This document shows positions 25,992 to 29,252 of a stretch of 64,000 bases of DNA, in pieces. Under the pieces are notes generated by a model. The model was given only the letters and a program-made list of their open reading frames with translations, did not search any database and had not been told where the DNA came from. Source of the DNA: an uncultured Chthonomonadaceae bacterium (GTDB lineage: Bacteria; Armatimonadota; Chthonomonadetes; Chthonomonadales; Chthonomonadaceae); the NCBI GenBank assembly GCA_963817895.1, contig CAWFQB010000014.1, positions 320,001 to 384,000 of the forward strand, in the 5' to 3' direction. Within the stretch, counting starts at the first letter, position 1; each line of letters starts with the position of its first letter. The translations under genes and the position numbers were made by a program.

Positions 25992-26882
25992 CAGAAGCAA
26001 CCTCCTCCCAAAAGTTCCTGTTGGCGTTGATAATCCAGCGCACTTGTAACCGAACCCATTTTGTGCAGAGTGCCAGGATTGCTGGAAAGCGGCTCCCCGT
26101 TCGCGCTTCGCGCGGCAAGGTCTACCTGACAGCCGAGCGCGGCGGGGATGCCGGAGCCGACGGCAGCGCCGATTCTGGCTCCCACTCCCGCGCCGCTGCC
26201 GCCACTCGCGATAGCCCCGATAACTCCGCCGGCGGCCCCCAGGTAGGCGGCAGGGTGTTTCTGGAAACCGGTCAGGACTTCGCCCTCCACACGGTAGTTG
26301 GTAATCAGGTTGTTCAAATTGGACGTGTCCAGATTCATGCGGGCGAGTGTTGCGGGGTTTACGCCCGCCGCATTGAACGTCGTGGTAGGCACATGCAGAA
26401 CCGCCGCGCCCACGCCTGCGAGTTCCTCCGCCCAGCGAGTGTCCCGTCACCACAATATTGTCGTTGGGAAACTGGCGCTTCACCTCATACGCCGCTTCCG
26501 CCGCCTGATTGTACTGCGCGGTTTCAAACCCCAACCCCTGCTTTGCGTTAGCCCACCAGTCTTTAGCGCTGGTCACTTCGGTTCCCCGGTAAGCAAGCAC
26601 AATGTTGCCGGTACGCAGATCACGATATGTAGCCGCGAAAAATCCGCTGTCCGGGTGGTTAAAATTGGGCAGAACTCGTTCCGAATCAGGGGGATGGCCG
26701 GTGTCATTATACGCGGCGGTCGAAAATTCGGCCATGCGCTGCGCGGTTGCGGTATCGGTAGGACACTTACTTTTTGAGTTCGCGCCTCCTGCGCCCGCCG
26801 CAGCAACTGCGCCCTGAGCGTGCTGCGCGATAATAGGAAGCAAATCTTCAACAAAGCGATTTCGGTTTAGCAGGGAAGCCAT
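25991..26882 (-). CDS. Phospholipase A1/lipase effector (PhlA/YplA-like, Tle-type); frameshift at ~26423
   Basis: SGFFAATY, VLAYRGT, DWWAN..QG, QY.QA. Removing one A gives TGHSLGGGLAG..TFNAAG and continues in ORF 25991..26413. Confidence 0.85.
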
Positions 26883-27025
26883 AACTTCACAACCCCTTCA
26901 CTTTCTACAGCGTTCAAGCAACCCATCGTAAGGATATTTATGTTTGCACCCTATTTACGCTAATAAATAAGATTCGTTTGCAACGGTGTGTCCGGCAGGC
27001 TGATAGTTGTATACCTCTTAATTTT

Positions 27026-28170
27026 ACTTCCGGCACAGAGTAGAAGCCGCTGTACGCCGCCGCTTTCTTGCCGCCGTCATGCCCACCCCCATACGGCGTC
27101 ACCTGATGCAGCCATGCCCGTTCGCCAGAGGGCTGCGGGTCCAGATGTTCCCACTCGAACTCCACCTGAATACGTCCCTGTTGCAGCGGGTCATGCTCAT
27201 TCGCCGTGACATGCCCCCACACCGCCCGGCTCGGCCACTCAGGTCGTTCTTTGTGCGGCGGCAAGGGCAGGGTCAAGGGTTGCAGCCACAACTCCTGCGT
27301 TCCCGTCGTTTGTTCCGGATGTCCCACAATGCGCGTCTGGTAGATGAGATGCTGCTGCCCCTCAAAAGAAACCACCTGCCCCGGTTGAAACGGCAACACC
27401 ATGCCTTCCAGACGCAAATAGTAGCCGCTGATGTCGTTATGCCCTTTGGTGTGACTCACGTTGCTGGTAATATCAGGACGCTCGGGAGCCTGCATGTAGT
27501 CTGCTGTGGCGCGGCTGAGTTGCCCAAGATGCTGACTGGCCTGCTGACGCGCCTGAGCCGTGGGGCCGCTGCCGCCGCTCGGAGGTTCGGGCAGAGTATG
27601 CAGACTGCCGCCGAAACTCACTTCCGCCCACCCGAAGTTGATGTCGGGGAACGTTTCACTCGCTTCCTGTCCTCTGGCTCCTAACTGCACATCCCCGGTT
27701 CTGTCCACAACCGCGACAGGAACGCTCCACGCATGGCACATTCTTGCGAGGTACTGGTAGTCGGTTTCGAGGTACTGCAAACTCAGGGGAATGGGCTTGG
27801 CAAGATCGCCCGCGTTGACGATCTTGAAGCGCGGCTCGGTTTTGGCAACCTGCTGCGCGATGTCGAGGAGGGTTGTGGCCTGAAACGCTCTGTGCCGCGG
27901 CACAAGATCGGTGCGCTTGCTGTAACTCACTCACGAGAGTGTCAGGCGCGAACTGTTGGCGTCGCGCTGTCCCGATGTGTTCTCCACGTATCCGTGAAAG
28001 CAGTTGAGCGCTTCGACGAGATCGTTGTCTTTCCAGTTCACATCAACGGGGCAGTTGAGCGCTTTGCCCGCAAACAGGGCGGTCGGACGCTCGCCATAGT
28101 GGTTGTGTTCCTGCCAGCGCCACGTCAGATGGGCGCGCGTATGCTCGTACAGATGGCGTTCCACCACCAT
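27026..28170 (-). pseudogene. vgrG: Truncated vgrG duplicate
   Basis: Nearly identical to 34807-35950 of the intact copy; lacks the first ~21 codons; TGC>TGA nonsense at 27931-27933; homology stops at ..YSVPEV in the Gp5-OB domain. Confidence 0.88.
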
Positions 28171-28208
28171 CTCACTGAGAAACTATTTGGTATAATTTTT
28201 CAGTTTTG

Positions 28209-29252
28209 TTACCGATACGGTGGCTGTGTATCAGAAACGTTTTCTGATTGAACAGCATTCTGTAGTGTGCTTTGATAGATTTGCGCAGTGGCGGCGAATG
28301 TAGCGGCGCGATCTGTGCCGTTGACAACACGGCGGGCATTAGCAAAGTCTGTTGCAGTATCATTGACGTAATCGGGCAAGGCGCGTCCGGTAAACGTACC
28401 CTGCATCATACCCTGTGCCAGAATACGCGCGGCTGTCTGAGGATTAGTTGCTTGCTCGGGATGGGCGACAAGATTGATGGCTGCGTTATCGGGTTGCAAA
28501 CGGTTTGTCCAGTCTTGATAGTTGTTGCGGCCTGTAACCTGCACATACCCGCGTCCACGAAAATCATAGCCGTCGCTAGTACCCGCCTGATTGCCCAAGT
28601 CTGCATGTCGGGGCATATTGTAGCGAGAATCGAAGTAGTCCTGCGGTGTCTGGCTCTGCGCGAGGTGCCAGGGAACTTCCTCCAGCGCGGGATACTCTAT
28701 GCCATGCCAAGTGTGAGGAGAACCAAAATCCGATTCATGCTGTGCGGTTGCGAGCATGTAAGCTGTTTGCGGCAAGTTCGCGTTCTGCTGCGCTGCGGCC
28801 TGCAAAATCGCAGGAACGGCCGTTTGCGCGTAAGGGCGGAGGTTGGCAGGCACAGCCTGTACTATCACATCGGCAAACCGAGTGAAGTTATTGGCCGCCC
28901 GCTGCACAGCCTGTCCTCCTATCTGCGCCGCGCCTTGTGCGATAGGCCCTGCAAAGCCAGGTGTAGCTCCCGGCAGACCTTGCGTGGACTCAGCTAAAAT
29001 AGGTCCCGCAAATCCGGGCGTAGCTCCCGAAAGCCCACTTGATTGCGCTGATTGGAACGGAGGCGTCATTCCCGTTGTTCCCTGGCCTGTCATCTGCGCA
29101 ATGCTGCCGATAGCCGTCTGTACTGCTGTCTGCGCAACACTGCCGCCGGGAAGCAAGTGAGATACCGCCTGATTTGCTTCCTGCGTGGTAATAGAAAGAA
29201 CCTCTTCTACGAAGCGGTCCCGTTTTAGTGGTTCGGAAGGATTAGGGGACAT
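28209..29252 (-). CDS. Glycoside hydrolase family 19/lysozyme-like (peptidoglycan/chitin) putative effector
   Basis: AYMLATAQHES, LGN...DG..FRGRGYVQVTGRNNY, NLV.HPE, F.NARRVVNG; the N-terminal low-complexity linker has a duplicated GATPGFAGPI. Confidence 0.85.
   Translation of the reverse strand: MSPNPSEPLKRDRFVEEVLSITTQEANQAVSHLLPGGSVAQTAVQTAIGSIAQMTGQGTTGMTPPFQSAQSSGLSGATPGFAGPILAESTQGLPGATPGFAGPIAQGAAQIGGQAVQRAANNFTRFADVIVQAVPANLRPYAQTAVPAILQAAAQQNANLPQTAYMLATAQHESDFGSPHTWHGIEYPALEEVPWHLAQSQTPQDYFDSRYNMPRHADLGNQAGTSDGYDFRGRGYVQVTGRNNYQDWTNRLQPDNAAINLVAHPEQATNPQTAARILAQGMMQGTFTGRALPDYVNDTATDFANARRVVNGTDRAATFAATAQIYQSTLQNAVQSENVSDTQPPYR

Follow-up and report, generated by a model that had tools for sequence, protein, structure and literature searches.

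A very short N-terminal motif as a likely cargo-delivery tag of a type VI-like system in Armatimonadota

Why should two unrelated enzymes, a muramidase resembling glycoside hydrolase family 19 (GH19) and a GxSxG lipase, begin with a similar short peptide? The question is raised by a 64,000-nucleotide stretch of an uncultured Chthonomonadaceae bacterium (phylum Armatimonadota; contig CAWFQB010000014.1, positions 320,001 to 384,000), hereafter the window, in which both genes lie in a locus that also encodes a tube and a VgrG spike protein. An earlier interpretation made without database searches (the sequence-only reading) had proposed that the shared 22 residues form an undescribed trafficking signal. 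Judging from sequence comparisons, the peptide resembles the published elements RIX and PIX in kind and is likely a new and very short tag for delivering cargo through an uncharacterised type VI secretion system (T6SS)-like machine.

The motif and its wider family

The two window copies (Table 1) agreed at 12 of 22 residue positions and, in DNA, at 44 of 66 bases, with an ungapped BLOSUM62 score of 54. Translation of both stretches confirmed the residue count given in the sequence-only reading, whose coordinates were right for the motifs but not for the protein starts, which lie at 29252 and 26882. Six of the 12 identical residues were encoded by different codons; thus, the pair is not a recent DNA copy. 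Neither protein contained a hydrophobic signal-like stretch (top 12-residue hydropathy, 1.03 and 0.97) or a Pfam match to a PAAR, MIX, or FIX family, as had been claimed. The Gly/Ala/Pro-rich linker described after each motif was borne out in composition (fractions of 0.33 and 0.38 in the 60 residues past the core defined below, respectively), but that of the lipase is only ~16 residues long, compared with ~90 in the GH19-like protein. A six-frame scan of the genome (G000; 7.48 Mb, 14,956,290 positions) found no third copy, with only the two window copies scoring at least 40 (82 and 79; runner-up, 36.5); the scan profile includes both copies, so that these scores speak to the absence of a third copy and not to significance.

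The best PDB match of the GH19-like protein (P0001) was the endolysin 4ok7 (E 1.8e-7), a GH19 enzyme. The GH19-like label thus holds through PDB endolysin matches and not through Pfam, where P0001 itself had no match, and a homologue in G001 matched Glyco_hydro_19 weakly. Its orthologue P0084 (72% identical) and the intact lipase orthologues P0003 and P0004 all retained the motif, and the GxSxG nucleophile motif and the Lipase_3/Mbeg1 match were present in all three lipases (P0002–P0004). Identity between the GH19 orthologues was 73% in the motif, 49% in the linker, and 80% in the catalytic domain, and two of the three lipase pairs showed 77% in the motif versus 44–50% in the linker. Across the two enzyme families, 11–13 of 22 motif residues were identical. 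In other bacteria, fusions of this lipase domain to PAAR (P0008, P0013, and P0024) or to XVIPCD are found, which suggests that the motif holds the place of a delivery module.

A 14-residue core, P-[ILV]-x-R-x-[PRN]-[FL]-[VAI]-E-[EDQ]-x-[LM]-P-[IVL], recurred N-terminally in proteins of four further genomes of the same phylum. It was located within the first 30 residues, mostly ahead of a low-complexity linker, and preceded six unrelated C-terminal types: GH19-like (P0001 and P0084), lipase (P0002–P0004), GH108 with PG_binding_3 (P0088), HExxH-bearing (P0095 and P0096), DUF2515 (a protein of G336), and one unknown domain (P0089–P0094). When the parts past residue 45 were compared by blastp, P0095 and P0096 were the one linked pair; the cluster of P0089 contains five further members, all with the core pattern. 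The proposed 22-residue signal is therefore upheld in its first part, the core, which recurs on unrelated effector-like proteins, and not in its last eight residues, which are lineage-specific: the Q-x-A-x-x-A-V part was found in the window lineage only, plus loosely in G364.

The G364 copy, P0088, is a GH108 muramidase encoded right behind the tube gene, with a divergent motif copy in register. It was missed by an earlier hidden Markov model (HMM) search and spotted by eye; it had the top score among 730 open reading frames (ORFs) of the loci, a score that seven background N-termini of G000 also reach. A phylum search including P0088 yielded an N-terminal match in G308 (contig C142), where the contig end cuts the gene, and the 18 other weak matches of one such search (of 19) were rejected as internal or off-frame. 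From this match, further copies were reached: two each in G379 and G336 and one more in G308. These copies, all from genus g84, are orphans remote from the locus; one of them has an Ala-rich linker followed by the contig end. Together with two FGE-sulfatase genes, one orphan copy interrupts the ATP synthase operon at the atpG–atpD junction (L175:8022-11491, contig C2 of G379), a copy in G308 also lies behind atpG, and another lies beside two paralogous signal-bearing genes. The NCBI labels of P0088, P0104, and P0119 (Cytophagales, Janthinobacterium) conflict with their GTDB placement in the phylum of the window.

The window and g84/G364 copies almost certainly form one family by sequence likeness. 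The alignment showed a 5' lead (LRPMR) in the G364 and g84 copies, and the window lineage and G364 shared a 3' Ala/Gln helix; with both ends, P0088 bridges the groups. The six g84 cores alone ranked the window proteins first and second among 9,035 N-termini (leave-lineage-out), and in reverse, the score given by the two window copies alone was reached by none of 9,033 background N-termini for five of the seven other copies and by one for the remaining two. It is barely credible that chance made two separate motifs, that of the window pair and that of the RPMRP family in g84 and G364, look alike. For such a coincidence speak the weak six-frame HMM link between lineages and the mere 3–4 of 14 core residues that P0088 shares with the window copies; it is opposed by the ranks above, by the 8–9 of 14 core positions at which the GH19 copy agrees with three g84 copies, and by the fact that four of the 14 matches listed at E<=2 (window-family profile, 18 genomes) later turned out to be members. 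Several results weigh against a single family: a six-frame HMM without window rows placed the GH19 copy fourth among 142,228 frames (E 0.96) and the lipase outside the top eight, and a profile from g84 alone listed neither. The rank test is, moreover, not fully independent, as the choice of the 14 columns followed an alignment of all rows and as likeness to window-derived profiles had first brought the g84 copies to light.

Alternatively, the motif could be a 5' gene end that was inherited and is used in recombination, as a handle where toxin domains are exchanged, with no function in the protein. The window locus is indeed rich in recombination scars, with a vgrG remnant upstream of each motif gene (a feature absent from the sequence-only reading), and the shared 44 of 66 bases would fit. 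Against this, the codons differ at half of the identical residues, three families (f1, f14, and f29) have retained the core while their linkers share nothing, and the orphan copies are remote from the locus, which together make a pure recombination handle very unlikely.

Proposed role in cargo delivery

Based on these comparisons, the motif is probably an N-terminal tag by which unrelated antibacterial cargo toxins are delivered via a divergent type VI-like apparatus of the phylum; the architecture, the conservation, the co-occurrence with the tube, and the absence of signal peptides are observed. The tube gene was found in 19 of 401 phylum genomes, corresponding to five of 207 genera. A nine-row motif profile gave matches at E<1e-9 in five of the 401 genomes, all tube-positive (next match, E 9.3e-4), and in none of the 382 tube-negative genomes; because the profile was built from these five genomes, its informative part is the blank in the 382, with up to 20 candidates scored per genome. 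The strong matches fell in three of the five tube-positive genera (p=2.8e-4 at the genus level, own genus left out). The sequence-only reading had looked for support in hits at the N-termini of toxin-like proteins confined to genomes with the locus, and this is the pattern obtained, as the N-terminal matches stood on effector-like proteins and the strong ones occurred only in tube-positive genomes. Of the 13 weak matches (~8 expected), 11 were internal or off-frame.

Three copies lie inside the tube/vgrG locus (in the window and G364). This placement bears on the idea that the tagged proteins are exported by other means, for example an extracellular contractile injection system (eCIS) or a system akin to type VII or type IV, whose co-occurrence with the locus would be due to chance. 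A separate phage-sheath locus on contig C1 of G000 and the XVIPCD-type nature of related lipases elsewhere lend that idea some support. However, Phage_sheath_1 was found in only one of the five motif genomes, there outside the tube/vgrG locus, and WXG100 in none of them (81–92% complete), so that a different exit has a very small probability. The C1 locus (~284000-301000) contains the second phage-sheath gene plus a weak VgrG-like match and is situated away from the window locus.

Most motif genes are followed by a small partner gene. In G364 and G379, the downstream partners carry signal-like stretches (hydropathy, 2.4–3.6) and are duplicated in G379, unlike the motif proteins, which have no such stretch. 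The HExxH, DUF2515, and unknown domains would themselves be toxic under the delivery reading. The following points weigh against it: no partner gene lies downstream of the GH19-like gene, and no signal-like stretch was present, at the starts used, in the genes that follow the G308 HExxH and G336 DUF2515 copies; in the third lipase pair, the linker (75%) was as conserved as the motif (68%); within g84, the motif occurred in three of 12 tube-positive and none of six tube-negative genomes (p=0.51); two tube-negative genomes (G165 and G299) had weak partial matches near a possible start; and 14 of the 19 tube-positive genomes, among them the two further members of the window's genus, had no copy. 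The last absence is expected for accessory effectors, yet it limits the generality of the tag.

If the tag works as proposed, its core would form a Pro/Arg-rich extended stretch leading into a short FVEEVLP segment, continued in the window lineage by an amphipathic helix. The core would dock on a secreted part of the apparatus, the linker would space the folded toxin so that it hangs free, and contraction would deliver the docked toxin. The helix is predicted for the 3' part (hydrophobic moment, 0.33–0.40; shuffle p, 0.02–0.065 in five copies), and it also fits a role other than loading, in which the tag binds a chaperone or immunity protein, inhibits the enzyme in the producer, or aids membrane reach after delivery. 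An N-terminal segment of the phospholipase Tle1 is reportedly involved in both VgrG loading and inhibition (EMBO J 2020), in line with such a role. The g84 copies, however, keep the core without the helix, and cargo types with different targets and unrelated partner genes do not readily share one function in inhibition or immunity; we consider a non-loading role unlikely.

As the docking site of the proposed tag, the tube lumen leads with somewhat less than an even chance, because the orphans are placed far from vgrG and the G364 copy lies right behind the tube gene. The VgrG/PAAR spike follows at roughly one chance in three, because vgrG remnants lie upstream of both window genes and PIX binds VgrG from orphan genes, and an adaptor comes last as a minor candidate. 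Against the tube site, Hcp cargo recognition in Pseudomonas is described as proceeding without conserved sequence motifs in a recent preprint (10.64898/2026.06.15.732508). It is doubtful, going by the sequences, that a linear tag of ~14 residues alone would suffice for loading cargo of any kind into the tube of a contractile injection subtype that is undescribed and lacks a canonical membrane complex. If it did, a T6SS-like machine would have a real short secretion signal, in a setting where a sequence motif is generally not considered necessary for Hcp loading. The motif seemed to resemble part of the 609-residue core protein, and also the tube, but neither likeness was supported. One VgrG of G336 (L160:1294-1830, contig C252) contains PFVEEILPV between the needle and the C-terminal domain (E 0.139), which could be an origin of the core, a mimic, or chance.

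Comparison with known delivery elements

MIX, FIX, WHIX, PAAR/prePAAR, and DUF4157 are interchangeable N-terminal modules before diverse toxin domains; the tag is alike in this respect, and all of them are longer domains. RIX, found in the same way as the tag, is likewise short, N-terminal, and Arg-containing, and it occurs on polymorphic cargo effectors of T6SSs; as described (PMC10435454), it spans ~55 residues, is reported only from Vibrionaceae and Moritellaceae, and is necessary and sufficient for secretion, and it is this description that sets it apart from a 14-residue core in another phylum. PIX is an N-terminal delivery element on orphan effector–immunity pairs outside the main cluster, as here, but it is described as a folded Enterobacterales domain that binds VgrG (10.1101/2023.07.16.549128) and not a short linear motif. 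With 14–22 residues and a host in a different phylum, the tag falls outside the published length and host range of both. The proposed loading also resembles that of the PVC and Afp signal peptides, which are reported to be short and N-terminal and to load cargo into the tube lumen of an eCIS with the AAA ATPase Pvc15 (PMC9054023, PMC11495950, and 10.1101/2023.11.13.566157). The window locus instead has a PAAR/DcrB/VgrG effector logic, no AAA match was found among its scanned ORFs, and the single Phage_sheath_1 gene among the motif genomes, outside the locus, is unlike an eCIS.

The claim that the motif is undescribed agreed with the database results: none of the nine motif copies matched a Pfam family at E<=5, in a Pfam version whose coverage of RIX, PIX, and WHIX was not checked, and no PDB sequence matched the motif. 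The large protein and metagenome sets were searched with window-family profiles, before the g84 copies were available, and no profile joins all lineages with the three metagenome orthologues (P0003, P0004, and P0084). The 5.8-billion set gave no new family, with P0001, P0003, and P0004 only among 7,999 scored; the 1.84-billion representatives likewise gave none, with P0004 and P0084 plus P0085, an ORF in a repeat array that was rejected as a motif copy. P0085–P0087 are predicted proteins of a four-fold repeated peptide, presumably a translated CRISPR array. With the window-family profile A1, 17 matches at E<=0.05 in 400 phylum genomes were about chance level, and 67 class genomes gave no new match. 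No tube was found in viral contigs, and an ESM Atlas search with the tag was uninformative (best, 0.79). Rejected candidates comprised the one matching stretch of 169 from JGI metagenomes (internal to a phospholipase C), the one of six matches in a GTDB pattern scan that reads as peptide (internal), an off-frame candidate in G364 (C186), and 17 of 20 weak matches of a later phylum search (internal or off-frame), of which three were kept and one matched a VgrG linker. A strict regular expression that matched none of 81 lipases was not used, as it misses P0003 and P0004 themselves. In the literature, no T6SS study of Armatimonadota was found by title or abstract start, with subscription papers mostly outside coverage, and no paper was found that links Armatimonadetes with contractile systems, VgrG, and secretion systems together, with supplements outside coverage, where effector-domain tables (e.g., PMC10673891) could list the motif.

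A general secretion signal is not known for T6SS cargo effectors, and new toxin families have come to light with every delivery element described (RIX, PIX, and WHIX). The present tag is much shorter than these three, belongs to a divergent apparatus, is a prospective marker for finding such toxins, and makes cargo recognition testable with a 30-residue fusion; it already points to three domain types without shown toxin activity, namely HExxH-bearing P0095/P0096, DUF2515, and P0089.

Host apparatus and neighbouring genes

The motif genes belong to a conserved minus-strand cluster (~40.4 to 16.7 kb; Table 1) that also encodes a small membrane-anchored protein, a sheath candidate, the tube, VgrG, and a prePAAR-PAAR-WHH effector and includes the three core genes. 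Spike genes (VgrG and PAAR) and an Hcp-fold tube are present at the locus. The tube model (predicted local distance difference test score, 72) had Hcp and CIS tubes as its top Foldseek matches, the best being Flavobacterium johnsoniae Hcp1 (E 2.4e-5), with Bacteroides fragilis Hcp within the top 10. The sheath candidate had no Pfam, NCBIfam, or PDB sequence match and ESM Atlas leads to VipB, TssC, and Phage_sheath_1 (0.82–0.84); the three core genes had no family (Pfam, NCBIfam) or PDB match. DotU and IcmF_C (the TssL/TssM families) were not found in G000 (81% complete), unlike canonical T6SS-i. The Bacteroidota T6SS (subtype iii) shares the closest tube fold and the lack of matches to canonical TssL/TssM families, but the present locus has one sheath candidate gene of ~850 residues and membrane genes unrelated by the searches run. 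The host apparatus itself (window 16739-40645; loci L010-L021, L087-L096, L122, and L176) looks undescribed, because of the single 830–870-residue sheath candidate, the Hcp-fold tube, the lack of Pfam matches for sheath and core, the lack of DotU/IcmF_C in G000, and the conserved membrane genes.

Table 1. Features of the window (all on the minus strand) that bear on the motif and its host locus
Feature	Position	Strand	Remarks
Three conserved core genes (554, 609, and 344 aa)	20601..25270	-	Baseplate candidates by position alone
Ankyrin-repeat protein, 219 aa	25332..25991	-	Overlaps lipase stop
GxSxG lipase (Lipase_3 / Mbeg1-like)	25991..26882	-	Frame break near 26424; Pfam match and GxSxG motif
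Motif copy 2	26805..26870	-	Residues 5-26 of lipase; 14-residue core 26873-26832
vgrG remnant, both ends cut	27026..28169	-	DNA 91% identical to 34807-35951; adjoins lipase, upstream
GH19-like muramidase P0001, 347 aa	28209..29252	-	Motif, ~90-residue Gly/Ala/Pro/Gln linker, catalytic domain; PDB endolysin matches
Motif copy 1	29163..29228	-	Residues 9-30 of GH19-like protein; 14-residue core 29231-29190
vgrG scar, 53 bases	29598..29650	-	85% identical to 35222-35274; upstream of GH19-like gene
SUKH, ankyrin, and DcrB genes	29723-32123	-	After PAAR-WHH effector
prePAAR-PAAR effector with WHH nuclease, two frames	31876..34051	-	Pfam
VgrG (Phage_GPD, Phage_base_V, weak DUF2345), in two frames	34179..36015	-	VgrG models below NCBIfam cut-offs
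Tube protein, Hcp / tail-tube fold	36229..36642	-	Predicted model, structure search
Sheath candidate, several frames here	36953..39611	-	Position and weak leads; ~850 aa in relatives (830-870)

The listed 516-residue lipase ORF reads through its frame break into the ankyrin gene. In a related strain, one low-depth contig differs in length at the lipase break and another at the vgrG break, and both breaks are therefore likely assembly errors. Frame breaks in the sheath, tube end, vgrG, PAAR effector, lipase, and several housekeeping genes suggest an error-prone assembly. The ankyrin-repeat protein is likely an immunity protein, and a possible orphan immunity gene lies upstream of the GH19-like gene (window 29275-29597, minus strand), where a small ORF of low GC content, broken in frame, contains two CxxC pairs. 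A conserved protein with a C-terminal membrane segment (window 39669-40365), split here, accompanies the locus in relatives and resembles tandem ubiquitin-like domains. In G001, PAAR, a DUF4123 adaptor, and a two-domain GH19-Ntox46 effector lie in series (L011:15998-18718), the last being a relative of the window GH19 domain with a different N-terminus. In G101, a separate eCIS-like cluster (sheath, tubes, VgrG, PAAR, and baseplate by inspection) lies directly behind the locus (L096:3434-20000).

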